Assembly (NCBI GenBank): GCA_016933255.1
Contig: JAFGBF010000015.1
Location: forward strand, 79,725 to 143,724
Length of the DNA stretch: 64,000 bases
From: Candidatus Krumholzibacteriota bacterium
Lineage (GTDB): Bacteria; Krumholzibacteriota; Krumholzibacteriia; Krumholzibacteriales; Krumholzibacteriaceae
Reading direction: 5' to 3'
Shown here: in pieces, positions 4,211 to 51,561 of the stretch
Numbering within the stretch: position 1 is the first letter of the stretch
Layout: each line of letters begins with the position of its first letter
The notes under the pieces: generated by a model
Database searches by the model: none
What the model was told of the DNA's origin: nothing
What the model saw: the letters and a program-made list of their open reading frames with translations, nothing else
Made by a program: the position numbers and the translations under genes

Positions 4211-6757
4211 TTACTTTGTCTTTGATTTTTTTCTGGCAGGCTTTCCGGGGCTGACCGGATCAGTTTTCTTTTTCGGCCTGTCATAAGGGATGGTGTATGT
4301 CTGTGCTTTCCAGATATCTCTGTTATACTCCTGAATCGTCCGGTCTGATGAAAACTTGCCCATGCGGGCTACGTTGAGGATCGCTTTTTCTATCCACCCG
4401 GTTCTGCCGTAGTAAGTCTTTCCAGCCCTGATCTGGCACTCTCCGTATGATTCAAAATCAGCGAGCGTAAGAAAATGATCAGTATTGAGAAGGTTGGAGA
4501 TAAGGGAACCAAAAAGTCCGGGTTCTGCCGGGGAGAAAAACCCGCGGCTTATCATGTCGACCGTCTCTTTAAGAAGAGGATTTTTATCATAATACGCCCG
4601 GGCATTGTATGTCGGAGCCATTTCCCTTATCTCATCTGCTGTATGCCCGAAGATAAAGATATTCTCTTTTCCGACCTCTTCAAGTATCTCGATATTGGCT
4701 CCGTCGAGTGTTCCTATCGTAAGTGCTCCATTCAGAGACAGTTTCATGTTTCCCGTTCCGGATGCTTCGTAGCCGGCAGTGGATATCTGCTCCGACAGGT
4801 CGGCGGCTGGAATGATCTTTTCAGCGAGAGAGACGCAGTAGTTGGGAAGAAAGACTACCTTTATAATGCCTTTCGTTACTGGATCACGGTTTATGATCTC
4901 GGCGGCATGGCATATAAGCTTGATGACCATCTTTGAAATATAGTAGTCAGGGGCAGTCTTTCCGGCGAAAAAGAATGTGCGCGGGTGCATCTCGAATCCG
5001 CTCTCGTTTTTCAATCTGAGCCAGCAGGTTATGACATGAAGGATATTGAGCATCTGTCTTTTGTATTCATGTATCCTCTTGATCTGGACATCGAATATCG
5101 AATCCGGGTCGATTTCCTCTCCCGTAAGATCGAGGGTCATGCCTGCAAGCCCTTCCTTGTTCGTTTTTTTGATACGGTCGAATGCTTTCTGGAAATCCGG
5201 ATCTGCAGCCAGAGGTTCGATCTTGCGTATCTGCGACAGGTCGCTTACCCAGCCATCTCCTATATGTTTCGTTATCAATCCGGCCAGTTCGGGGTTTGCC
5301 GCAAGCAGCCACCTTCTTGGTGTGATGCCGTTGGTTTTGTTGTTTATTCTTCCCGGAAACACTTCTTCAAATTCCCGGAAGATCCCCTCTTTTAAAAGTT
5401 TTGTGTGGAGGGCGGCCACTCCGTTTACTGAATGGGACCCCACGATCGCCAGATGAGCCATACGGATCCTTTTGCTGCTATCTTCGCCTATGATCGACAA
5501 GCGGCTTGCGCGGCCTTTGTCTTCCTTGAAGCGGATCGATACGTCTTTGAGGAACAGACGGTTGATCTCATAGACGATCTCCATGTGCCGCGGCAGGAGT
5601 GTCCCGAAGATCTCCACAGGCCATTTTTCAAGAGCTTCTGAAAGGATCGTGTGATTTGTATAGGCGCATGTCTTTGTAGTTATCTCCCATGCTTTATTCC
5701 ATTCGATCTGATATTCATCCACAAAGATCCTCATAAGTTCAAGGATCGCCAGCGAGGGATGCGTATCGTTCAGCTGAATGGCGACTTTTTTGTGAAAATC
5801 GTGGAAGCCCTTATGATTTACAAGATAGCGGCGGATAATATCCTGTATGGAGCAGGATACGAAAAAATACTGTTGTTTAAGGCGAAGTTCCCGTCCTACG
5901 AAGTTGCTGTCATTAGGATACAGAACCTTCGAGATATTCTCCGAGATGTTTTTTTCCTCTACAGCTTTCAGATAGTCGCCATGCTGAAAATAATTGAGAT
6001 CGAATTCGTTGGATGCTCTCGAGGACCAGAGACGCATCGTGTTGACGGTGTAGTTGTCGTATCCGCAGACCGGGGTGTCATACGCTATACCTATGACATC
6101 GTCGGTATCGACCCATTCTTTTTTCAGCTGACCGTCGGGCCATTTTGAGGTATTGATCTTACCGTAGAATTTAACGGGGAAACTGTACTCCGGTCTCTCT
6201 ATCTCCCATGGATTTCCAAATTTAAGCCATGAATCGGGAAGTTCTACCTGCCCGAAATCTCTTATTACCTGTTCAAATATGCCGAATTCATATCTTATCC
6301 CGTACCCGTACGCCGGTATTTCCAGAGTCGCCATCGAATCGAGAAAACAGGCGGCCAGTCTTCCCAGTCCTCCGTTTCCAAGCCCCGCGTCAGGTTCCTG
6401 CTCGACAAGTTCGTCAAAGTCGAGGCCCAGGTCTTCCACAGCCTTTTTTGTTTTTTCCAGGAGATCCAGATTGATCAGATTATTTACAAGGGCCCTGCCC
6501 ATCAGGAATTCAGCGGAGAGGTAATAGACGCGTTTGGCGTCCTTGTAGTAATAAAGCTGCTGGGTCTTGATCCACTGTTCGATTATCCTTTCCCGGACGG
6601 TTAAAGCGAGAGAGAAATAGAGGTCCCTGTCAGTGGCGGTATACTGGTCTTTTGAGAGAGAGTATTCGAGATGATTCGCGAAACATTCCTTTATATCCTT
6701 TGTCCTCATCCCCTTATGAAAAATACCGTGTTTTTCAAACAGAGCGCGTTTATCCAT
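4211..6757 (-). CDS. glgP: Glycogen/maltodextrin phosphorylase.
   Basis: 848 aa. Contains the pyridoxal-phosphate lysine motif EASGTGNMKLSLNGALTIGTLDGANIE. The N-terminal region matches alpha-glucan phosphorylases. Confidence 0.9.
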   Translation of the reverse strand: MDKRALFEKHGIFHKGMRTKDIKECFANHLEYSLSKDQYTATDRDLYFSLALTVRERIIEQWIKTQQLYYYKDAKRVYYLSAEFLMGRALVNNLINLDLLEKTKKAVEDLGLDFDELVEQEPDAGLGNGGLGRLAACFLDSMATLEIPAYGYGIRYEFGIFEQVIRDFGQVELPDSWLKFGNPWEIERPEYSFPVKFYGKINTSKWPDGQLKKEWVDTDDVIGIAYDTPVCGYDNYTVNTMRLWSSRASNEFDLNYFQHGDYLKAVEEKNISENISKVLYPNDSNFVGRELRLKQQYFFVSCSIQDIIRRYLVNHKGFHDFHKKVAIQLNDTHPSLAILELMRIFVDEYQIEWNKAWEITTKTCAYTNHTILSEALEKWPVEIFGTLLPRHMEIVYEINRLFLKDVSIRFKEDKGRASRLSIIGEDSSKRIRMAHLAIVGSHSVNGVAALHTKLLKEGIFREFEEVFPGRINNKTNGITPRRWLLAANPELAGLITKHIGDGWVSDLSQIRKIEPLAADPDFQKAFDRIKKTNKEGLAGMTLDLTGEEIDPDSIFDVQIKRIHEYKRQMLNILHVITCWLRLKNESGFEMHPRTFFFAGKTAPDYYISKMVIKLICHAAEIINRDPVTKGIIKVVFLPNYCVSLAEKIIPAADLSEQISTAGYEASGTGNMKLSLNGALTIGTLDGANIEILEEVGKENIFIFGHTADEIREMAPTYNARAYYDKNPLLKETVDMISRGFFSPAEPGLFGSLISNLLNTDHFLTLADFESYGECQIRAGKTYYGRTGWIEKAILNVARMGKFSSDRTIQEYNRDIWKAQTYTIPYDRPKKKTDPVSPGKPARKKSKTK

Positions 6758-6959
6758 CGGGTGCCTCTCCAGACAAGGGTTAGTAAGTCATCTCCTTCGG
6801 GCTTTTCCTCTGCTGTCAGACCAGAGTATCACTAGAGGAAGCGGATTGTCACACATTTTATCGGCTTCAGGCGCCGGGAAGGCAGTTTAAATTATGGGCA
6901 TTCAGTAAAAAAAGATAAAAAACGAATATTCTCTTTGACACAGCGATCGATTTATATAA

Positions 6960-6980
6960 TAATAGTAACAGTTACTATTA
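6960..6980. promoter_or_regulatory. Perfect 10-1-10 palindrome TAATAGTAAC-A-GTTACTATTA. Candidate Fur/PerR-family operator, overlapping or adjacent to a putative promoter (TTGACA 6935-6940, TATAAT 6955-6960).
   Basis: The inverted repeat was read directly from the sequence. It lies about 30 nt upstream of the Fur-family gene start. It is AT-rich and resembles the 7-1-7 / 9-1-9 Fur/PerR box architecture. Confidence 0.55.
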
Positions 6981-7012
6981 GCAAAGGAAGTGTTGTGCAT
7001 ACAAATCTACGC

Positions 7013-7417
7013 ATGACGAAACAGAGGAAAATGATCCTTGACGAGTTGAGACAGGTGACTGTCCATCCTACAGCTGACCAGGTCTATGAATCTGTAAGGA
7101 AAAAGATGCCTGGAATCAGCCTTGGTACAGTCTACAGGAACCTCGATCTTCTTTGCAGGACGGGAATGGCCCGCCGGATAGAAAAGAGCGGGTCTCCGAT
7201 GCGTTATGACGGCGATTTAAGCCTCCACAATCATATTTGCTGTACGAAGTGCGGCAGGGTAGACGATATCAGGGCTATTGATCTGGAAACGGGGCTGGAG
7301 GAAAAAGAGATAATGAAAACCGGCTACCGGTTGATAAAGATAAAGATCGAACTGGCGGGGCTTTGTCCTGAATGCCAGAAATCGGAAGACCGTCTCGAAC
7401 CGAAAGGGCTGGGTTGA
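7013..7417 (+). CDS. Fur-family metalloregulator, PerR-like.
   Basis: Winged-helix N-terminal region (RKMILDEL...HPTADQVY...LGTVYRNLDLL). Two Cys pairs (CCTKCGRV...CPEC) give the structural Zn site. The start is set at ATG 7013; the supplied ORF 6935 would add a non-Fur N-terminal extension. Confidence 0.8.
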   Translation: MTKQRKMILDELRQVTVHPTADQVYESVRKKMPGISLGTVYRNLDLLCRTGMARRIEKSGSPMRYDGDLSLHNHICCTKCGRVDDIRAIDLETGLEEKEIMKTGYRLIKIKIELAGLCPECQKSEDRLEPKGLG

Positions 7418-7420
7418 CAG

Positions 7421-8266
7421 ATGATCGGCGGGGTATTGGAAGATCTCTATACAAGATACAATGACAGGGATTTTGTCGAACCGGACCCCTTGCATTTTCT
7501 TTTCAGGTACGATGATATCCGGGACCGTGAAATTGCGGGGTTGATAGCGTCTTCTCTTGCCTTTGGAAGTGTCGGCCAGATAATGAAGAGCGTGGAAAAG
7601 GTCCTGGGGGTCATGTGCGGTTCGCCGGGGGAATATCTTTCCAGGGCGGACAGGACAGGGATGCGAAAGGAGTTTGAAGGATTCAGGCACAGGTGGGTCG
7701 ATCAGGAAGCGCTGATAAATCTTCTTGACGGTATCAAAACTGCCGTGAGAAAATTCGGAACCCTCGAGAAATGTTTCGCATCCGGATATTCCAATAAGGA
7801 CAGGGATATTGTTCCCGCGCTTACGGCTTTTGTGGACGAGATCATAGGTTCAGGGAAAGTCAATCGGCTGGTCCCTTCTCCATCTCGAGGCAGCGCCTGT
7901 AAAAGGCTGAATCTTTTTCTGAGATGGATGATCCGTTCCGATGGAGTCGATCCGGGGGGCTGGAATATGATCTCATCGTCAAAACTGGTGATCCCCCTTG
8001 ACGTGCATATGCATCGGTTTTCGATACTTCTCGGTTTGACAGAGCGCAATCAGGCAGACCTGAAAACCGCGAGGGAAGTAACAGAAAGTATGAAGATCTT
8101 TTCGCCTGTGGATCCGGTCAAATATGATTTTGCCTTAACCAGGCTCGGGATAAGGCGCGATGATGACAGGGAAAGCCTGCTGATGAGGCTTGGAATCGGT
8201 ATCGACCAGTCGGGAAAGATAAGGCGGGTCATTGAAGGTCAGTCAGAGCGGGGGAGTGTAAGTTGA
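7421..8266 (+). CDS. DUF2400 (TIGR02757) family protein of unknown function.
   Basis: Motifs KRLNLFLRWMIR, IPLDVH and DPVKYDFAL match my recollection of DUF2400 family conservation. It starts 3 nt after the Fur-family stop. Confidence 0.6.
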   Translation: MIGGVLEDLYTRYNDRDFVEPDPLHFLFRYDDIRDREIAGLIASSLAFGSVGQIMKSVEKVLGVMCGSPGEYLSRADRTGMRKEFEGFRHRWVDQEALINLLDGIKTAVRKFGTLEKCFASGYSNKDRDIVPALTAFVDEIIGSGKVNRLVPSPSRGSACKRLNLFLRWMIRSDGVDPGGWNMISSSKLVIPLDVHMHRFSILLGLTERNQADLKTAREVTESMKIFSPVDPVKYDFALTRLGIRRDDDRESLLMRLGIGIDQSGKIRRVIEGQSERGSVS

Positions 8267-9525
8267 AGGAGTTTTTCCTGAATTTTATTCTGGAGCTTTT
8301 CGGGACTCTTAAAGAGATGTCTCCCTATCTGATCTTCGGATTTTTTGTCGCCGGCCTTCTCTCGGTCTTTATCAGGCCCGAGACGGTAGAAAAACATCTT
8401 GGAGGAGGCGGTTTTCTACAGGTGATAAAAGCATCTCTTTTCGGTGTGCCTCTTCCATTGTGTTCGTGCGGAGTCATTCCAGTTGCAGTATCTCTGAGAA
8501 AGCATGGGGCAAGCAGGGGCGCGATGACTTCGTTTCTGATCTCGACTCCCCAGACGGGGATAGACAGCATATTTGTCACTTTGAGCCTGCTTGGGCCCGT
8601 CTATGCCGTATTCAGGCCTATAGTCGCTTTTGTCAGCGGTATCGTCGGAGGAGCAGCGGTAAATATTCTTGTGAAGAACGGTGACGACCAGACTCAGGAA
8701 GTTCCTGTCTGCAGAGACGCCTGCTGTACGGCAGATGGAAACCGACGAAAATTTACGGAAGTCTTTCAATACGCGTTCAGGACCCTTCCGGCTGATATCA
8801 ATAAGGCACTGATCTTCGGTATAGTCATAGCGGGTGTCATCGGGGCCCTTATACCCGATGACTTTCTCACCGGCATTCTCGGAGGCGGGATCGTAGCGAT
8901 GCTGGCGATGATGGCACTCGGGATACCGATCTATGTGTGCGCTACAGCTTCGGTCCCGATCGCGGCGGCCATTATTGCCAAAGGGGTCTCGCCCGGCGCG
9001 GCGCTTGTATTTCTTATGACCGGGCCTGCCACCAACGCCGCTGCCGTTCTGGCGTTGGGAAAGATCCTGGGGAAGAGATCGGCCGTAATATACCTTGCCA
9101 CGCTGGCCGTGTCGGCGGTAACCGCAGGCATTCTTCTCGACCTTGTCTACAGTTCTCCAAATGTAGCTCAACCGGCCGGCATGCCGTTTATGCTTCCGGA
9201 GTGGGTCAAGGTATCGAGCGCGGCAGTACTTTCAGCGGTCATTGCTGCCTCATTCTTCCAAAGGCGGAAGGCGGTTTTTCGGGAAGGCGGCACCGGAGAA
9301 GAAAAAATTATAATCAAGATCGAAGGTATGACATGTCAACATTGCGTTAATAGCATTAAACGCACAATTCTGGAGACTTCCGGCGTGGAAGGCGCGGAGG
9401 TCGATCTGAAAAGAGGTGATGCGGTAATATGGGGAAAACGACTCGATCAGTCCCGGTTTGTTGAATCTTTGGGATCACTGGGATATAAAGTTACCGGACG
9501 GGAAGAATTCCCGCGATCTGAGTGA
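8263..9525 (+). CDS. Permease (COG0701/DUF318-like with a CSCG motif) carrying a C-terminal heavy-metal-associated (HMA) domain.
   Basis: Multi-TM region contains CSCGVIPVA. The C-terminal roughly 70 aa are IKIEGMTCQHCVNSIKRTILETSGVEGAEVDL, a MxCxxC HMA fold. TTG start with GGGGGAG RBS, overlapping the DUF2400 stop by 4 nt. Confidence 0.6.
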   Translation: MKEFFLNFILELFGTLKEMSPYLIFGFFVAGLLSVFIRPETVEKHLGGGGFLQVIKASLFGVPLPLCSCGVIPVAVSLRKHGASRGAMTSFLISTPQTGIDSIFVTLSLLGPVYAVFRPIVAFVSGIVGGAAVNILVKNGDDQTQEVPVCRDACCTADGNRRKFTEVFQYAFRTLPADINKALIFGIVIAGVIGALIPDDFLTGILGGGIVAMLAMMALGIPIYVCATASVPIAAAIIAKGVSPGAALVFLMTGPATNAAAVLALGKILGKRSAVIYLATLAVSAVTAGILLDLVYSSPNVAQPAGMPFMLPEWVKVSSAAVLSAVIAASFFQRRKAVFREGGTGEEKIIIKIEGMTCQHCVNSIKRTILETSGVEGAEVDLKRGDAVIWGKRLDQSRFVESLGSLGYKVTGREEFPRSE

Positions 9526-9569
9526 AATGAAGATGCTTCTTTAATCAACAAAACCGGGGAGGTTTAGCA

Positions 9570-10142
9570 ATGTCTATCAAGGGAACAGAGACTGAAAAAA
9601 ACATTCTGAAAGCGTTTGCGGGGGAGTCGCAGGCGAGAAACCGTTACACCTATTTTGCCTCCCAGGCAAAAAAAGAGGGTTATGTCCAGATCTCTTCGAT
9701 CTTCGAAGAGACAGCCGATCAGGAAAAAGAACACGCAAAACGTCTATTTAAACTTCTTGAAGGCGGAGAGATCGAGATCACCGCGGGTTTTCCTGCAGGA
9801 GTAATCGGGAAGACTGAAGAGAACCTGGCGGAGGCTGCCGGAGGAGAAAATCACGAATGGACTACAATGTATCCGGGCTTTGCGAAAGTGGCCGCTGCGG
9901 AAGGGTTTGATCACATCGCAAAGATCTTCGAAGCGATAGCAGTCGCGGAAAAGCAGCATGAGAAACGTTATAAGGATCTGATGGATAATATCAATTCCGG
10001 GCGCGTTTTCAAACGTGAGGGCGCGGTCGTCTGGCGCTGCCGGAATTGCGGTTATCTGGAAGAGGGAACGGAAGCGCCTGAAATATGTCCGGCATGTGCC
10101 CATCCGAGAGCCCACTTCGAGATCCTTGGAGAGAACTGGTAA
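9570..10142 (+). CDS. rbr: Rubrerythrin.
   Basis: Ferritin-like di-iron domain with E..H motifs, plus a C-terminal rubredoxin-like CxxC...CxxC (WRCRNCGY...CPACAHP). Confidence 0.9.
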
Positions 10143-10193
10143 CAGGATGGAAGTTGTAATCGTCAGTGTGTTTGAATATTTTTTTATGGAGGT

Positions 10194-10577
10194 ATGAAGA
10201 TGGCAAAGAAACTCGAGATCTACAAATGTGAGATGTGCGGAAATATCGTTGAGGTTCTGCATGGAGGAGCGGGAAGGCTGGTATGTTGCGGCGCGAATAT
10301 GAAAAAATTCGATGAACAGACCGCCGATGCTTCGACTGAGAAACATGTCCCGGTAATTGAGAAGATCGACGGCGGATACAAGGTCGTAGTAGGCAGCACT
10401 CCGCACCCGATGGAGGAAAGTCACTGGATAGAATGGATCGAACTTTTGGCCGGGGATATTGCATACAGGACCTTCCTGAATCCCGGTGATGCCGCAGAAG
10501 CGGTCTTTCACACGGACGCTGATAAAGTCTCGGCAAGGGAATACTGCAATGTGCACGGACTCTGGAAAAAGGAGTAG
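10194..10577 (+). CDS. dfx: Desulfoferrodoxin (2Fe superoxide reductase).
   Basis: N-terminal desulforedoxin CxxC..CC ([12 protein letters not shown]...LVCCG). SOR centre II motif EKHVPVIE. Confidence 0.9.
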
Positions 10578-10583
10578 GGTATA

Positions 10584-11102
10584 ATGATATCAGACAAGAT
10601 CATTAAGGCGATGAACGATCAGATAAGGAAGGAGTTTTACTCCTCGTATCTCTATCTTTCAATGGCTTCATATCTCCATAGCAAGGGATTCGACGGGATG
10701 GGGGGCTGGATGCGTGCCCAGGCTATGGAAGAAGCGATTCACGCGATGAAATTTTTCGATCATCTCATTGAAAGGGGCGGAGATGTGGAACTTCAGCCGA
10801 TCGAACAGCCGCCGGCAGAATGGAAATCTCCTTTAGAGGCTTTCAGGGGAGCGCTTGATCATGAAAGAATGATCACTGGAACGATCAATGATCTGTACAA
10901 GATGGCCAGTGATGAAAATGATTATGCCTCCAGGACGATGCTTCAGTGGTTCATCGACGAGCAGATCGAAGAGGAGACAAATGCCGAGAAAAACGTAAGA
11001 ATGCTTGAGATCGCTGGAGAGTCGGGACAGGCTCTGCTTATGATAGACAAGGATCTTGGGGTGAGGATGATGCCCCTCGTTCCATCAGTAAAAGAAGTAT
11101 AG
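10584..11102 (+). CDS. ftn: Non-haem ferritin.
   Basis: 172 aa. Ferritin-like four-helix bundle with E..H ferroxidase residues (EEAIHAMKFFDH). The N-terminus resembles bacterial Ftn. Confidence 0.8.
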   Translation: MISDKIIKAMNDQIRKEFYSSYLYLSMASYLHSKGFDGMGGWMRAQAMEEAIHAMKFFDHLIERGGDVELQPIEQPPAEWKSPLEAFRGALDHERMITGTINDLYKMASDENDYASRTMLQWFIDEQIEEETNAEKNVRMLEIAGESGQALLMIDKDLGVRMMPLVPSVKEV

Positions 11103-11140
11103 GCAGGGGAAGAAGAGGAATTTCGGCAGGAAGGATAACG

Positions 11141-12367
11141 ATGTCAGAGACGTTCAAGGCGGTTCGTATAACGGACGGCGTTTACTGGGTGGGCGCGATA
11201 GACTGGAATATCAGGAATTTTCACGGATACTCCACGTACAGCGGAACGACGTACAACGCTTATCTGGTCATGGCTGAGAAGGTCACACTTATAGATACAG
11301 TCAAGGAACCGTTTAAAAACGAGTTACTTTCGAGGATCTCGTCGGTGATAGATCCCGGGAAGATCGATTATGTCGTCTCAAACCACGCGGAAATGGATCA
11401 TTCGGGATACCTGGGAGAATTTATTGAAAAGTACCGGCCTGAAAAGGTGTTTGCTTCGAAAAAGGGCGTGGAAGCTCTTGAAGACCATTTCGGGATAGGT
11501 GATCAGCTTATTGCGGTCGATGACGGTGAGAAGATAGACCTGGGCAGCGATTCGCTGATCTGCCTTGAAACGAAGATGCTTCACTGGCCTGACAGTATGG
11601 TCACGTATCTGGCAGGCAAAAAGATCCTGTTTTCCCAGGATGGGTTCGGTATGCATCACGCTTCATATGGACGTTTCGATGATATGATCGACGAAAATAT
11701 TCTCAAACGTGAGGCGGCCAAGTATTACGCGAATATCCTCCTGCCTTTTTCCCCTGTCGTAAAGAAAGTCCTGAAGAAAATCGGGGATTCAGGGCTCGAG
11801 ATCGAGATGATTGCTCCCGATCACGGCCCTGTCTGGAGATCAGGTGTGGAGAAGATACTATCACTGTATGATAGATGGGCGTCGAGAGAACTCAGAAAGA
11901 AAGCGGTTATCGCCTGCGATTCGATGTGGGGGTCCACGACTGTGATGGCAAGGGTCATCGGACAGAGCCTGTCGGAGAGTGATGTTGATGTCGCGTATCT
12001 GAATTTGAGCACAGCGCATAGGTCGGATCTTGCCGCTGAGCTTATCGATGCTGGAGCTCTGATAGTCGGTTCACCGACGATCAATGGCACCCTCTTCCCG
12101 ACCGTAGCGGACGCGTTGTACTATATCCGCGGACTGAAGCCGACCGGGATCGTGGGCGCGGCATTCGGATCGTACGGATGGAGTGGAGAGGCGGTCGGAC
12201 AGATCACCGAACTGCTGGAAAAGATGAATATCGATCTTGCAGGAGAAAGCGTTAGGGCAAAATATGTTCCTTCAGGTCATCTGATCGAACGCTGCAGCGA
12301 GCTCGGCCGTGAGGTGGCGAAAAGGCTGGAAGCCCTTCCAAAGAATTTCCCTGGAGAAAAGCCGTAA
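11141..12367 (+). CDS. Flavodiiron protein (FprA / rubredoxin:oxygen oxidoreductase-like).
   Basis: Metallo-beta-lactamase-like di-iron domain (HAEMDHSG) followed by a flavodoxin-like domain. The roughly 400-aa length is typical of class A FDPs. Confidence 0.85.
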   Translation: MSETFKAVRITDGVYWVGAIDWNIRNFHGYSTYSGTTYNAYLVMAEKVTLIDTVKEPFKNELLSRISSVIDPGKIDYVVSNHAEMDHSGYLGEFIEKYRPEKVFASKKGVEALEDHFGIGDQLIAVDDGEKIDLGSDSLICLETKMLHWPDSMVTYLAGKKILFSQDGFGMHHASYGRFDDMIDENILKREAAKYYANILLPFSPVVKKVLKKIGDSGLEIEMIAPDHGPVWRSGVEKILSLYDRWASRELRKKAVIACDSMWGSTTVMARVIGQSLSESDVDVAYLNLSTAHRSDLAAELIDAGALIVGSPTINGTLFPTVADALYYIRGLKPTGIVGAAFGSYGWSGEAVGQITELLEKMNIDLAGESVRAKYVPSGHLIERCSELGREVAKRLEALPKNFPGEKP

Positions 12368-12369
12368 AG

Positions 12370-13230
12370 ATGAAGAGACAGATAATTACAATCGACGAGG
12401 AAAAATGTAACGGGTGCGGGAAATGCCTGCCTAATTGTCCGGAGGGAGCCCTTCAGATAATCGACGGGAAGGCCAGGCTCGTCAGTGATCTTTTCTGCGA
12501 CGGGCTCGGCGCCTGTATCGGGTATTGTCCGGAGGGTGCGATCTCTACGGAGCTTCGCGAAGCAGAAAAGTATGATGAAAAAAAGGTGATGGAAAACATA
12601 ATCCGGCAGGGGCCGAATGTCCTGAAGGCACATCTGAAGCATCTCGTCGACCATGGAGAGACCGATCTTGTTGTGCAGGCGGTCGAGTATCTGAAAGATA
12701 ATGACCACGAAATACCGGAAGAGGCTATCGCTCTTCTTTGCCCTGCCTCGCGTATCTCACCGAAAGGGAACGGACCTGTGTCCGGGTGCCCCGGATCAAG
12801 CGTGGTAGAGATGAAAAGTCCCGGTCTGCAGGAAGAAAAGGGTTATCTGCCGCCATCAAAGTCTATGCTTGATCATTGGCCGGTCCAGATAAAGCTTGTC
12901 CCCTCATCTGCTCCTTTTCTTGACGGCTCGGATCTTGTCATTGTCGCTGATTGCGTTCCTTTTGCGTATGCCGATTTTCATGAAAGGTTCCTGAAGGGTA
13001 GATCCTGCATCGTCGGATGCCCCAAGCTCGATGATGCGGGATACTATCTTGAGAAATTGACGGCGATCTTTTCCAGCAACGATATACGCTCGATCCTTAT
13101 TGCATATATGGAGGTTCCCTGCTGCTCAGGAATGGTCAGGCTTGTAGAACGCGCGCTGGAGGCGTCGGGAAAAGAAATCCCGGTGAGCAGGCAGATGATA
13201 GGAATAAAAGGGGATGAATTGCCGCGCTAG
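12370..13230 (+). CDS. 4Fe-4S dicluster ferredoxin-domain protein with a C-terminal extension of unknown function.
   Basis: Two CxxCxxCxxxCP motifs (CNGCGKCLPNCPEG, CDGLGACIGYCPEG). Start overlaps the FDP stop region (TAAAGATG). Confidence 0.6.
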   Translation: MKRQIITIDEEKCNGCGKCLPNCPEGALQIIDGKARLVSDLFCDGLGACIGYCPEGAISTELREAEKYDEKKVMENIIRQGPNVLKAHLKHLVDHGETDLVVQAVEYLKDNDHEIPEEAIALLCPASRISPKGNGPVSGCPGSSVVEMKSPGLQEEKGYLPPSKSMLDHWPVQIKLVPSSAPFLDGSDLVIVADCVPFAYADFHERFLKGRSCIVGCPKLDDAGYYLEKLTAIFSSNDIRSILIAYMEVPCCSGMVRLVERALEASGKEIPVSRQMIGIKGDELPR

Positions 13231-13263
13231 TTTCAGCAGATAATAAAGGATATCTTCCCGATC

Positions 13264-13734
13264 TTAATCGATATCATCCTGAGACGGTCTGGATCTCGTC
13301 TGCTTGAGCACGCCCCGCTTTTTCTTTTCCCGTAGCCTCAATTCCTTTATAAATCCGGGTGGTTTCCGTTTTTTTCGCGGGGGATCGATCTGAAGGGCCT
13401 CGCGTATCAGTGTCACGAACCTCTCAACGGCCGCATTGCGGTTTGATCCCTGTGTCCTGTGTTTTTGGGAGGATACCCTTAATATCCCGCTTTTGTTTAT
13501 CCTGCCTGCCAGGTTTTCACGAATAAGAGCCGCCTGGGCTTCATCAAGAGCTGAAGAGTTCCCGATATCGAATGTTAGGACAGCCTTGGAATTCACCTTG
13601 TTTACATTCTGTCCTCCAGGCTTGCTGCTGCGGGAGAATCTGAAGATGATCTCATCGTCAGGTATCTCAAGCTCATCGTCTATCCTGACCACGCTATTCT
13701 CCCTGTCATGGGCGATTAATGGATCTATCCTCAT
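13264..13734 (-). CDS. arfB: Alternative ribosome-rescue factor ArfB (peptidyl-tRNA hydrolase with a class-I release-factor GGQ domain).
   Basis: 156 aa. GGQ motif (SKPGGQNVNKVNSKAVL) and a basic C-terminal tail (PPRKKRKPPGFIKELRLREKKKRG). Confidence 0.8.
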   Translation of the reverse strand: MRIDPLIAHDRENSVVRIDDELEIPDDEIIFRFSRSSKPGGQNVNKVNSKAVLTFDIGNSSALDEAQAALIRENLAGRINKSGILRVSSQKHRTQGSNRNAAVERFVTLIREALQIDPPRKKRKPPGFIKELRLREKKKRGVLKQTRSRPSQDDID

Positions 13735-13997
13735 CGAAGATATCGGTTAAAACAGGAGAATGCATCCGAAATCTGACCGCAGCGAAAAATATTCACAAAA
13801 CATACAGGCCTGAAAGTGAGATGTTGAGATATTTATATATATATGGTACCGTGATCGTCCTGATGACGGATGCTGAAAAACCGGCGGAAGGGCAACAATC
13901 ACCCTCTTGCCGTCGTAGGATACATACAGGAAGAGTTTTGCATATCGTCAGGACATTGTTGAAGATAGGGGTCTCTTTCTCAACCGGAGGTGTTTGA

Positions 13998-51291: not shown

Positions 51292-51561
51292 TTATTTTTC
51301 CCTTCAGGGTTAGGGTGAACAGAACAAGGATCCAGGACTCGGGACCCTGGGTATTTGTAATTATTAATACTGCCTGGAGAGAAAATAGTTTCATTAATTT
51401 TCAGATGAAACTGTAACTCCCTTGAAAATCAACATGTTGCCTGTGTCGCGTCAAAGGTTAAGAGGGCCTTTGCTGTTTCTCCTGGTGATATCAGGTTGTA
51501 CTATTCAGTTTCTTCAGATAGAGTAGACCTGTTAAACGGCTAATGATATGAGGTGAAAGAG

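Follow-up and report, generated by a model that had tools for sequence, protein, structure and literature searches.

In Desulfovibrio vulgaris, an autoregulated perR gene heads the perR-rbr-rdl operon of anaerobe-type peroxide defence genes (PMC545781), and the PerR regulon of Desulfovibrio also includes one unnamed hypothetical gene (PMC545781, Rodionov et al. 2004). In Bacillus subtilis the PerR regulon joins enzymes against peroxide to iron storage and to a pump for metal efflux, PfeT, which provides a precedent for PerR-controlled metal efflux (PMC9993123). Two further proteins serve as references for the locus described below, namely SO_0444 of Shewanella oneidensis, a Cu/Zn efflux permease whose mutant is Zn- and Cu-sensitive and was complemented (PMC3219624), and the 8-oxoguanine DNA glycosylase/lyase AGOG, described as exclusively archaeal and containing Lys140/Asp172 (PMC3397491).

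The Krumholzibacteriota locus and its described counterparts

We analysed a 64-kb stretch of DNA, referred to as the window, from Candidatus Krumholzibacteriota bacterium (GCA_016933255.1, contig JAFGBF010000015.1, positions 79,725-143,724 of the forward strand). It contains a candidate operon of ~6.3 kb (6935-13230) made up of eight closely spaced genes, all on the + strand, with perR in first place. Gene identities were assigned with Pfam and NCBIfam models, and these bear out the identities given in the initial annotation. The perR gene (6995..7417) encodes a Fur-family predicted peroxide-sensing repressor of 140 aa (PF01475, 97.5 bits) and is followed by a gene for a DUF2400/TIGR02757 protein of 281 aa (7421..8266; Pfam 243 bits, TIGR02757 208 bits). 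The third gene (8263..9525) encodes an exporter that scores 357.7 bits against the SO_0444-family equivalog model NF033936 (cut-off 300) and consists of an ArsP_1 permease domain (PF03773, 161.7 bits) and a C-terminal HMA domain (PF00403, 43.8 bits), with the motifs C67-S-C69 and, in the HMA domain, GMTCQHC (MxCxxC). Next come a rubrerythrin, or peroxidase (9570..10142; NF045767, 307 bits, cut-off 200), a desulfoferrodoxin of the 2Fe superoxide reductase type (10194..10577; TIGR00320, 201 bits, cut-off 147), a non-haem ferritin for iron sequestration (10584..11102; PF00210, 138 bits) and a flavodiiron O2/NO reductase (11141..12367) with metallo-beta-lactamase-like (ODP) and flavodoxin domains (PF19583 and PF00258) and no rubredoxin domain. 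The flavodiiron protein is not a flavorubredoxin orthologue, since its scores against the NorV models, 393 and 323 bits, do not reach the cut-offs (635 and 711). The last gene (12370..13230) encodes an Fe-S protein of 286 aa. Its description as a di-cluster ferredoxin holds for the N-terminal 2x[4Fe-4S] part (Fer4 families, residues 5-60) and thus for the first 60 residues only, since the Cys-rich C-terminal ~195 aa matched no Pfam family. Homologues of this possible electron donor for reductases also end the cluster in loci L001, L030, L041 and L061. The convergent arfB gene for a ribosome-rescue hydrolase (13264..13734, - strand; NF006718, 129.7 bits, cut-off 100) forms the 3' boundary of the operon.

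Compared with the operon of D. vulgaris, that of the window, whose host belongs to another phylum, is much larger, adding desulfoferrodoxin, ferritin, flavodiiron protein, Fe-S protein, metal exporter and DUF2400, and it lacks a rubredoxin-like gene. The likeness to B. subtilis lies in the combination of functions, which are carried out by other proteins: rubrerythrin, desulfoferrodoxin and flavodiiron protein stand in place of the catalase and AhpCF of Bacillus, and an ArsP/SO_0444-type secondary permease in place of the P-type ATPase PfeT, which exports Fe(II). We know of no DUF2400 protein in the Bacillus PerR regulon. The window permease and SO_0444 are both membrane proteins of the ArsP_1 family and share the signature CSC motif, but the window protein has the additional HMA domain and is under predicted control of PerR rather than of a ZntR/MerR-type metal sensor.

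Regulator, operator and predicted transcription unit

The regulator is PerR-like, as had been proposed in the initial annotation. Among the NCBIfam models the two PerR models rank best (1e-31 and 1e-29, compared with 7e-19 for Fur), although its scores of 110 and 103.5 bits are under the respective equivalog cut-offs of 180 and 200. Its closest relatives in the PDB are the PerR proteins of B. subtilis (2fe3, 2e-21) and S. pyogenes (4i7h, 2e-20), with the best Fur structure at 2e-14. All five ligands of the regulatory site of B. subtilis PerR, H37, D85, H91, H93 and D104, are kept in the window protein as H24, D72, H78, H80 and D91, and the four Zn cysteines align with C83, C86, C124 and C127. 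The start of perR is most likely the GTG at 6995, which is preceded by the ribosome-binding site AAAGGAAG (6983..6990, +), and the TTG at 6935 in the mechanical list of open reading frames was set aside in its favour.

Upstream of this start lies the perfect 10-1-10 palindrome TAATAGTAAC-A-GTTACTATTA, found at 6960..6980 as the initial annotation had reported. It is the single match in the 64-kb window, even with three mismatches allowed, and was absent from 100 shuffles (0 expected), while its half-site, with at most one mismatch, has two further copies in the window, both at unrelated places. The palindrome had been placed between a TTGACA/TATAAT promoter and the gene. Both hexamers exist on the + strand (6935-6940 and 6955-6960), but TATAAT is only 14 nt from the -35 element, and the best promoter-like site in 6600-13900 combines the same TTGACA (6935..6940, +) through 17 nt with AATAAT (6958..6963, +), an 11/12 match. 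With AATAAT as the best -10 hexamer, the palindrome overlaps the -10 and start region instead of lying between promoter and gene.

The 19-bp core of the palindrome, AATAGTAACAGTTACTATT, agrees with the consensus AwnAGnAAtngTTnCTnwT, which was published in 2004 as the predicted PerR box of Desulfovibrio (PMC545781), and is of the same operator class as the D. vulgaris perR site AtCAGTAATtGTTACTGgT, both being close to the promoter. The B. subtilis PerR box, TTATAATNATTATAA, differs in sequence and shares the 7-1-7-type inverted-repeat arrangement. The layout TTGACA-N17-box recurs upstream of perR in loci L044, L001 and L048, boxes are also present in L041 and L030, and related boxes stand before dfx in L076 and L014 and before DUF2400-rbr in L046. 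Among 120 metagenome loci with the exact core, 56 contigs encode a homologue of PerR, rubrerythrin, desulfoferrodoxin or ferritin, the site mostly preceding perR or rbr by 20-60 bp; DUF2400 was found at none of the 120. The fit to the box consensus, the conservation upstream of perR and the association with perR and rbr in metagenomes support the reading of the palindrome as a PerR operator of known kind.

We infer that the eight genes are co-transcribed from this one promoter. The seven intergenic distances are 3, -4, 44, 51, 6, 38 and 2 nt, and the first three agree with those reported initially: the perR stop at 7417 is followed by the DUF2400 ATG at 7421, the DUF2400 and permease genes overlap in TTGA (8263-8266), and the gap between permease and rubrerythrin spans 9526-9569. 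A terminator or promoter between 9525 and 9570 had been envisaged as a possible division before the detoxification genes, but the scans of this interval turned up neither a terminator nor a stable hairpin nor a strong promoter (RNA fold of 9495-9575, z = -0.58). No + strand terminator was found in any intergenic gap of the cluster, and no Rfam family matched.

DUF2400 as a predicted glycosylase

The operon itself is of an ordinary kind, and the novelty lies in the glycosylase-like assignment of DUF2400, which is based on gene neighbourhood, fold and motif. Neither this fold nor the experimentally supported Cu/Zn efflux function of the permease's family had been noted in the initial annotation. 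In a sample of 80 loci, each from a species with a close DUF2400 relative, 26 have a ROS-defence gene no more than 3 kb from DUF2400, co-oriented with it in every case. This adjacency extends over at least 12 phyla, with gene order varying between them, and the density of ROS genes falls from 1.85 per 10 kb at <1 kb from DUF2400 to 0.3 at 3-7.5 kb and 0 at 7.5-10 kb. The leading de novo clusters of neighbours are desulfoferrodoxin, AhpC/TSA, flavodiiron protein, rubrerythrin, the permease and flavin reductase-rubredoxin. The association with oxidative-stress genes that the initial annotation had suggested is thus conserved, with perR, rbr, dfx, ftn and fdp as neighbours. About two thirds of the 80 loci have no ROS neighbour, including 40 of the 45 labelled Desulfobacterota.

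In a Foldseek search of the PDB with the AF2 model of DUF2400 (pLDDT 92.4), the top 29 matches are all members of the HhH-GPD superfamily, among them AGOG-like 1xg7 (prob 1.0), Qng1, OGG1, MUTYH (TM 0.51), NTHL1, EndoIII, TAG and AlkA, at E-values of 0.05-0.7 and TM scores of about 0.5, and no other fold exceeded a probability of 0.3. The best structural match is AGOG (1xqo, 1xg7, 7oue; TMt 0.54 for 1xg7 and 0.54 for 7oue), and the second best is Qng1/DUF2419, a nucleotide hydrolase rather than a DNA enzyme. AGOG and DUF2400 are both all-alpha, two-domain proteins with a Lys...Asp pair on an unusually long linker (32 and 33 residues, respectively). In sequence, DUF2400 gave no match to Pfam AGOG and its family profile none to the PDB, and the family is overwhelmingly bacterial, unlike AGOG.

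The putative catalytic pair consists of K161 (7901-7903, +) and D194 (8000-8002, +), which are invariant in 53 representatives with 35-57% identity to the window protein. The surrounding sequence resembles the Nth/HhH-GPD motif G-x-G/A-x-K-x-x-N...(P/V)-x-D-T-H-x-x-R, with G157-S-A-C-K161-R-L-N164 set against G116-V-G-R-K120-T-A-N123 of Nth and PLDVHMHRF against AVDTHIFRV; the equivalence of K161 to the catalytic Lys comes from this comparison of motifs by eye and not from superposition. The hhalign alignment, at a probability of 4-9%, covers the motif region alone and pairs D194 with Nth D138, and on the same segment Pfam HhH-GPD gives weak matches in 5 of 35 members (at most 15.8 bits, cut-off 26.2). 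DUF2400 differs from Nth in lacking the [4Fe-4S] cluster loop, in an insertion of ~15 residues between the HhH helix and the Asp, and in falling under every family threshold. The G-S-A of its hairpin is a degenerate form of the canonical G-x-G. We propose, as a new and as yet unproven assignment, that DUF2400 is an AGOG-like predicted glycosylase of the HhH-GPD fold, and its position beside oxygen-defence genes in many phyla together with this fold suggests that it is probably a stress-induced DNA-repair enzyme.

Proposed working of the operon and alternative readings

We now put forward a hypothetical mechanism, which we regard as reasonably probable, for a PerR-derepressed operon that would couple the scavenging of ROS to the efflux and sequestration of metals and to the probable excision of oxidised bases in an anaerobe of the Krumholzibacteriota. 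Metal-loaded PerR dimers would occupy the 21-bp palindrome over the -10 and start site and block RNA polymerase. Oxidation by H2O2 of the His residues that coordinate the regulatory Fe would cause PerR to leave the DNA, upon which the single promoter would drive all eight genes, perR included. In the scavenging layer, rubrerythrin would deal with H2O2, desulfoferrodoxin with superoxide and the flavodiiron protein with O2/NO, the electrons probably being supplied by the Fe-S protein. The metal layer, directed at a Fenton-active or thiophilic metal, would store iron in ferritin and export Cu, Zn or a related cation through the permease-HMA protein, in parallel to the PerR-controlled PfeT of Bacillus. 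In the repair layer, DUF2400 would remove oxidised bases, 8-oxoG for example, by base flipping and excision, with Asp194 and Lys161 forming the pair of a bifunctional glycosylase/AP lyase.

The operon could instead be divided into two transcription units, with the PerR promoter serving perR-DUF2400-permease and a second promoter inside the cluster, possibly the weak promoter-like site (9/12) within the permease gene at 9328-9356, serving rbr-dfx-ftn-fdp-fdx. The gap of 44 nt before rbr is one of the two largest of the cluster, the other being the rbr-dfx gap, but it contains neither terminator nor stable hairpin, no second PerR box was found before rbr, the order of permease and then rbr recurs in L001, L030, L041 and L044, and DUF2400 elsewhere lies between ROS genes, as in Dfx-FDP-DUF2400-Rbr of other lineages, so that we consider this division unlikely. 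It is also rather unlikely, in our estimation, that DUF2400 uses its HhH-GPD fold as Qng1/DUF2419 does and hydrolyses modified nucleosides or nucleotides in free form, for example to clear or salvage oxidised ones, or that it acts on RNA. Qng1 (7u07, 7u1o, 7ulc) does occupy ranks 2-5 of the fold search (prob 0.97-0.99), no DNA-repair genes are found among the conserved neighbours, and the hairpin is degenerate; however, DNA glycosylases form the majority of the structural matches, the invariant Lys is at the position of bifunctional glycosylase/lyases and would be unneeded for nucleotide hydrolysis, and the family is basic (median pI 8.6) with many invariant Arg and Lys.

Metals could also be placed at the centre of the operon. 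That the regulator senses metal in a Fur- or Zur-like manner rather than peroxide, making the operon primarily a metal-homeostasis unit, would agree with its Fur family membership, its scores under both PerR cut-offs and the presence of ferritin and a metal exporter, but it appears very improbable given that PerR models and structures match better by 7-13 orders of magnitude, that the equivalent of D104 is present, that boxes of this class are found upstream of perR-rbr units and that five of the seven cargo genes encode ROS/O2 enzymes or their servants. Nor is it probable that DUF2400 is an accessory or metal-binding factor of the SO_0444-type exporter, with its link to ROS secondary to metal homeostasis: the permease is absent from 71 of the 80 loci, many of which have an adjacent Dfx, FDP or Rbr, C160 varies in the wider family, and no metal-binding fold was matched, the structural matches being of the glycosylase fold. 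For such a role speak the 4-nt overlap of the two genes in the window, the several invariant or nearly invariant His, Asp and Cys residues of DUF2400, and a permease homologue directly downstream in nine of the 80 loci, among them the Planctomycetota loci L023, L054 and L075 as well as L035, on whose local DNA no homologue of PerR, Dfx, ferritin or flavodiiron protein was found. L054 has one weak rubrerythrin-like match, 3.4 kb away.

Promoter, operator and regulator of the operon

The operon at 6935-13230 on the forward strand is headed by the perfect 10-1-10 palindrome TAATAGTAAC-A-GTTACTATTA, which reads from the sequence at 6960-6980 just as the initial annotation had described it and is the sole match in the 64-kb window at up to 3 mismatches (0/100 shuffles matched). 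Neither its half-site nor its 13-bp core has another meaningful copy within the window, further operators were sought there and none was found, and a weak PWM match at 51352, between protease-like and AsmA-like genes, was dismissed as an operator. The same annotation had placed the palindrome between a TTGACA/TATAAT promoter and the gene. Both hexamers are present, but TATAAT (6955-6960) lies merely 14 nt past the -35 element TTGACA (6935-6940, forward strand), and the promoter scan pairs this with AATAAT at 6958-6963 instead, 17 nt apart and with 11/12 positions matched, giving the best promoter-like site in 6600-13900. With this pairing the palindrome does not separate promoter and gene; it therefore overlaps the -10 element and the start region, which is the classical position of a repressor.

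The 19-bp core of the palindrome, AATAGTAACAGTTACTATT, fits every fixed (upper-case) position of AwnAGnAAtngTTnCTnwT, the Desulfovibrio-type PerR box that Rodionov et al. predicted in that genus ahead of the genes perR, rbr2, and ahpC (PMC545781, Tables 7, 11). Among the 80 DNA loci fetched around close DUF2400 relatives (L001-L080), TTGACA, a 17-nt spacer, and the box precede perR in L044 and L048, both labelled Krumholzibacteriota, and in L001, which comes from an unclassified MAG and has its genes in the same order; perR is preceded by a box in L041 and in the Omnitrophota locus L030 as well. A matrix made from these sites finds a match directly upstream of dfx in the deltaproteobacterial Dfx-FDP-DUF2400-Rbr clusters L076 and L014 (Dfx, desulfoferrodoxin; FDP, flavodiiron protein; Rbr, rubrerythrin) and another upstream of DUF2400-rbr in the spirochaete locus L046. 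A search of the 80 loci with the 13-bp core pattern recovered no site other than those at the known perR promoters. As an independent test of the operator, public metagenomes were scanned for exact AATAGTAAYNRTTACTATT, and 56 of the 120 loci returned contain a gene for a homologue of PerR, rubrerythrin, desulfoferrodoxin, or ferritin. The distance from the box to the downstream perR or rbr start is 20-60 bp in most of those 56, and the genomes span 23% to 62% G+C; DUF2400 was found in 0/120. This association with perR and rbr argues that the palindrome is no chance repeat but, by its sequence, belongs to a PerR-box class that is widespread.

The same matrix also gave strong sites in two Desulfobacterota genomes, TATCAGGAATGATTACTATTT (L056, 14563) and TATTGATAATGATTACTGATA (L031, 14356), approximately 4.5 kb from DUF2400, where they separate a 657-aa ORF from a small ORF. 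Read by eye, the larger would be a hybrid-cluster protein (hcp) and the smaller appears glutaredoxin-like, apparently followed in L056 by a ferredoxin-thioredoxin-reductase-like ORF; in Desulfovibrio, the predicted regulator of hcp is reportedly HcpR, not PerR. One member of the Desulfovibrio PerR regulon predicted in 2004 is a hypothetical gene without a name (VIMSS 206199 and 395549), possibly DVU0772, whose D. desulfuricans copy has the site AATAaGAATtGTTACTATT, nearly identical to the window half-site (PMC545781, Table 7).

The perR gene (6995-7417, forward strand) is assigned a GTG start behind AAAGGAAG. The ORF list began it at TTG 6935, which coincides with the -35 element itself; GTG 6995 is preferred and, from the sequence, is almost certainly the real start. 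The product matches the FUR family (PF01475) with 97.5 bits over residues 3-120, and its best solved relatives are the PerR proteins of B. subtilis (2e-21) and S. pyogenes (2e-20), with every Fur or Zur at 2e-14 or weaker. Compared with the B. subtilis PerR structure (BsPerR, 2fe3), H24, D72, H78, H80, and D91 align ungapped with H37, D85, H91, H93, and D104, the residue at position 104 being Asp, not Glu, as the regulatory metal site requires, and the Cys4 zinc site is kept (C83/C86 and C124/C127 with C96/C99 and C136/C139). PerR models are also the best NCBIfam matches, ahead of Fur at 68 bits, and both fall below their cut-offs (NF052545, 110 bits vs 180; NF047406, 103.5 vs 200), these being lineage-specific models of clostridial and Thermotoga types. 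The regulator is therefore PerR-type by residues and context, not a member of these two equivalogs, and its description as PerR-like is upheld. Only about six residues precede its conserved RxTxQR helix, so that it seems to be without the N-terminal helix of B. subtilis PerR; the PerR relatives in L044 and L048 look just as short N-terminally.

Operon layout and cargo genes

The operon comprises eight co-oriented genes separated by gaps of 3, -4, 44, 51, 6, 38, and 2 nt, the first three of which match the spacings previously noted, and is flanked by a divergent glycogen phosphorylase gene and a convergent arfB. A terminator or promoter between 9525 and 9570 had been named as the feature that might separate the detoxification genes from those upstream. 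This gap contains no terminator and no stable fold (9495-9575 folds no better than shuffles, z = -0.58), forward-strand terminator-like sites were found in none of the intergenic gaps, no second PerR box was found before rbr, and the structure check of the operon gave no Rfam family match. From this layout we infer that the eight genes are co-transcribed.

Family matches confirm the detoxification genes to be what the initial annotation had called them, namely rubrerythrin (307 bits vs a cut-off of 200), 2Fe desulfoferrodoxin (201 vs 147), ferritin (138 bits, Pfam), and a class-A flavodiiron protein with matched ODP and flavodoxin domains. The last was rejected as a NorV orthologue (NorV equivalog, 393 vs a cut-off of 635). 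The final gene (12370-13230, forward strand) had been termed a di-cluster ferredoxin, which holds for the two-cluster N-terminal domain of the 286-aa product but not for the remaining ~195 aa: 4Fe-4S families match the first ~60 residues only, and the Cys-rich C-terminal part (…VADCVPFAY…VGCPKLDD…EVPCCSG…) has no Pfam match. With neither a rubredoxin nor an NADH oxidoreductase encoded in the operon, electrons are likely to come from the terminal Fe-S protein, which is conserved. Its homologues are present in eight of the fetched loci and recur at the end of ROS clusters that are without rubredoxin, and so may be the electron donor in these as well.

The permease-HMA gene (8263-9525, forward strand) encodes an ArsP_1 protein of the SO_0444 Cu/Zn efflux family (NF033936, 357.7 bits vs a cut-off of 300). 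In translation, C67-S68-C69 is the Cys-Ser-Cys motif described for the SO_0444 family (10.1101/2022.07.06.499078), and a C-terminal HMA domain (PF00403, 43.8 bits, residues 351-409) carries the MxCxxC motif as GMTCQHC.

Fold and candidate catalytic residues of DUF2400

Operons led by PerR that contain rubrerythrin and superoxide reductase are textbook anaerobe biology, and what this one contributes as an operon is limited to a new phylum, one that has been little studied, and a palindromic operator that is unusually clean. Operon and operator alike are of a known and ordinary kind, and the interest lies in two passengers, which offer a testable hypothesis for the function of DUF2400 and a recurrent DUF2400-exporter pair. 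The DUF2400 protein (7421-8266, 281 aa) belongs clearly to its family (Pfam, 243.4 bits vs 25; TIGR02757, 208.3 vs 139.2), which has 3,832 representatives at 50% identity (E ≤1e-3; 1,255 at E ≤1e-30), nearly always as single-domain proteins of ~260-290 aa with a basic character (median pI 8.6). The window comes from a Candidatus Krumholzibacteriota MAG, and the DUF2400 protein has a public counterpart at 100% identity from a MAG of this kind. No functional statement on DUF2400 was found in the literature searched.

An alignment-based AlphaFold model of the protein (pLDDT 92.4, pTM 0.90) is all-alpha and has the two-domain fold around a helix-hairpin-helix by which HhH-GPD proteins are recognized. 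The first 29 Foldseek matches against the PDB all belong to the HhH-GPD superfamily, with modest E-values (0.05-0.7), and the matches below those 29 have a probability under 0.1. The 29 include two archaeal 8-oxoguanine DNA glycosylases, AGOG-family 1xg7 (probability 1.0, TM 0.48/0.54) and Pab-AGOG 7oue, together with the queuine-salvage hydrolase Qng1/DUF2419, OGG1, MUTYH (TM 0.51), NTHL1, endonuclease III (Nth), TAG, and AlkA. In sequence, the HhH-GPD profile PF00730 gives sub-threshold matches in 5/35 DUF2400 members (best 15.8 bits vs a cut-off of 26.2), which in the 4 members inspected end on a ‘GSACKRL...PLDTHMHR’ segment; twenty members scanned singly gave sub-threshold HhH-GPD matches only, and a PDB sequence search with the family profile gave no relevant match. 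Three hhalign runs against two endonuclease III alignments, one of them with a more diverse DUF2400 alignment, each returned one short alignment that pairs PLDVHMHRF with AVDTHIFRV and places D194 on Nth D138 (P = 0.0035-0.012, probability 4-9%), which we regard as supporting, not decisive. By eye, G157-S-A-C-K161-R-L-N164 parallels Nth G116-V-G-R-K120-T-A-N123, and both K161 and D194 are invariant in 53 representatives with 35-57% identity to the window protein. HhH-GPD enzymes keep a catalytic Asp past the HhH, and their bifunctional members also have a Lys that opens its second helix. Based on the model, the HhH-GPD fold is well supported, and K161 and D194 are plausible as the catalytic pair, with K161 matched to K120 by eye.

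DUF2400 and AGOG are alike only in fold and in a long linker between Lys and Asp, which in DUF2400 spans 33 residues. The AGOG pair Lys140/Asp172 has an unusually long linker, and AGOG has been described as exclusively archaeal (PMC3397491). Assignment to AGOG calls for sequence membership (PF09171) and the 8-oxoG-binding residues Gln31, Trp69, Asp218, and Trp222; no Pfam AGOG match was found in DUF2400 at E up to 10.

Genomic neighborhood and proposed role of DUF2400

The central check of the initial annotation was whether DUF2400 commonly neighbors perR, rbr, and dfx in other anaerobes. The 80 loci, obtained with an alignment of 35 homologues and each taken from the genome of a separate GTDB species, were searched with the window proteins; of at least 594 relatives these score best, and the figures describe that part of the family. 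An ROS homologue (PerR, Rbr, Dfx, ferritin, or FDP) lies within 3 kb of DUF2400 in 26/80 loci, with at least one on the DUF2400 strand in all 26, and ROS-gene density falls from 1.85 per 10 kb (<1 kb) to 0.3 (3-7.5 kb) and 0 (7.5-10 kb), which bears out the expected association. By record titles, it is seen in 21/35 loci outside Desulfobacterota and in 5/45 within, and extends over at least 12 phyla (Krumholzibacteriota, Omnitrophota, Eisenbacteria, Thermotogota, Caldisericota, Spirochaetota, Lentisphaerota, Elusimicrobiota, Acidobacteriota, Actinomycetota, Synergistota, and Bdellovibrionota). The genes come in several orders (PerR-DUF2400-permease-Rbr-Dfx; PerR-Rbr-DUF2400-Dfx; Dfx-FDP-DUF2400-Rbr; Dfx-DUF2400; DUF2400-Rbr-Dfx-Fdx), which argues against a single inherited block. 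When the three ORFs closest to DUF2400 on either side were clustered blind, the largest families were Dfx, AhpC/TSA peroxiredoxin, FDP, sigma-54 activator, small rubrerythrins, permease, NifS/NifU-like, and flavin-reductase-rubredoxin proteins, the sigma-54 activator and NifS/NifU-like labels being read from sequence.

We now put forward a hypothetical mechanism in which PerR would repress the promoter via the overlapping box and would be inactivated by H2O2, allowing the operon to be expressed. Rbr, Dfx, and FDP would then remove H2O2, superoxide, and O2/NO, respectively, with the terminal Fe-S protein as the likely source of electrons, while ferritin and the SO_0444-HMA exporter would lower the pool of reactive metal and DUF2400 would remove oxidized bases. 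We propose, tentatively, as a real possibility that we hold to be somewhat less likely than not, that DUF2400/TIGR02757 proteins are unrecognized bacterial AGOG-like HhH-GPD bifunctional glycosylase/lyases that form the DNA-repair arm of PerR/ROS clusters in anaerobes. Three independent and consistent clues bear on DUF2400: predicted PerR control, placement in ROS clusters in at least 12 phyla, and a glycosylase fold with invariant Lys and Asp. Base excision within an oxidative-stress regulon has a precedent in E. coli, where SoxS induces endonuclease IV. If the proposal is true, DUF2400 would be the first enzyme of base excision to be placed directly within a PerR regulon, and AGOG-type enzymes, a class so far taken to be confined to archaea, would have a counterpart in bacteria; a positive activity would show how strict anaerobes couple oxidant scavenging with the repair of oxidized DNA. 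For the exporter, growth under stress from Zn or Cu requires SO_0444, which was annotated as a copper/zinc efflux protein from fitness and complementation (PMC3219624), and PfeT, which exports Fe(II) under the control of PerR, provides an established precedent (PMC9993123). An SO_0444-HMA exporter under PerR control suggests that metal efflux is general to peroxide defense beyond Firmicutes.

Several alternatives bear on parts of this mechanism. The operon might be split by an internal promoter, for which a weak promoter-like site (9/12) inside the permease gene at 9328-9356 is the candidate; set beside intergenic gaps free of terminator-like sites, this appears unlikely to us. DUF2400 might instead act on free nucleotides in the manner of Qng1, which is itself among the fold matches along with many DNA glycosylases, and we judge this to be rather unlikely. 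An accessory role for DUF2400 in metal export would fit the permease-HMA gene lying directly after DUF2400 in 9/80 loci. In the Planctomycetota loci with this pair (L023, L054, and L075) and in L035, no PerR, Dfx, ferritin, or FDP was found on the locus DNA examined, L054 having one weak rubrerythrin-like match 3.4 kb from the pair, and the pair may therefore be a module of its own. We consider the accessory role improbable. A further alternative is that the regulator senses metal rather than peroxide; with the regulatory ligands of BsPerR conserved, we regard it as highly improbable. Our preferred reading remains that of a peroxide-responsive operon with DUF2400 as a putative repair enzyme.

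Other arrangements around DUF2400 were also seen. One public protein (P0362, 402 aa, on one 22.7-kb ENA contig) joins a PerR-like FUR domain in frame to DUF2400 through a Gly/Ser/Lys-rich linker; it is a singleton that may be real or a sequencing artefact and is given little weight. In the window, perR and DUF2400 share a frame and lie one codon apart beyond the stop. In Desulfobacterota, the gene directly after DUF2400 is often not an ROS gene but, in seven loci with L013 among them, one for a sigma-54-dependent-activator-like protein, whose N-terminus is Cys-rich and by eye PAS-like (…CHEAFGGPFCGEQCSFCG…), and which may sense redox state or metal. On this reading by eye the protein is not obviously PexR-like, in that PexR senses H2O2 via a GAF domain, and that identity was rejected. 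In five loci, including L049, DUF2400 is directly followed by a gene for a conserved 242-aa predicted membrane protein without a Pfam match.
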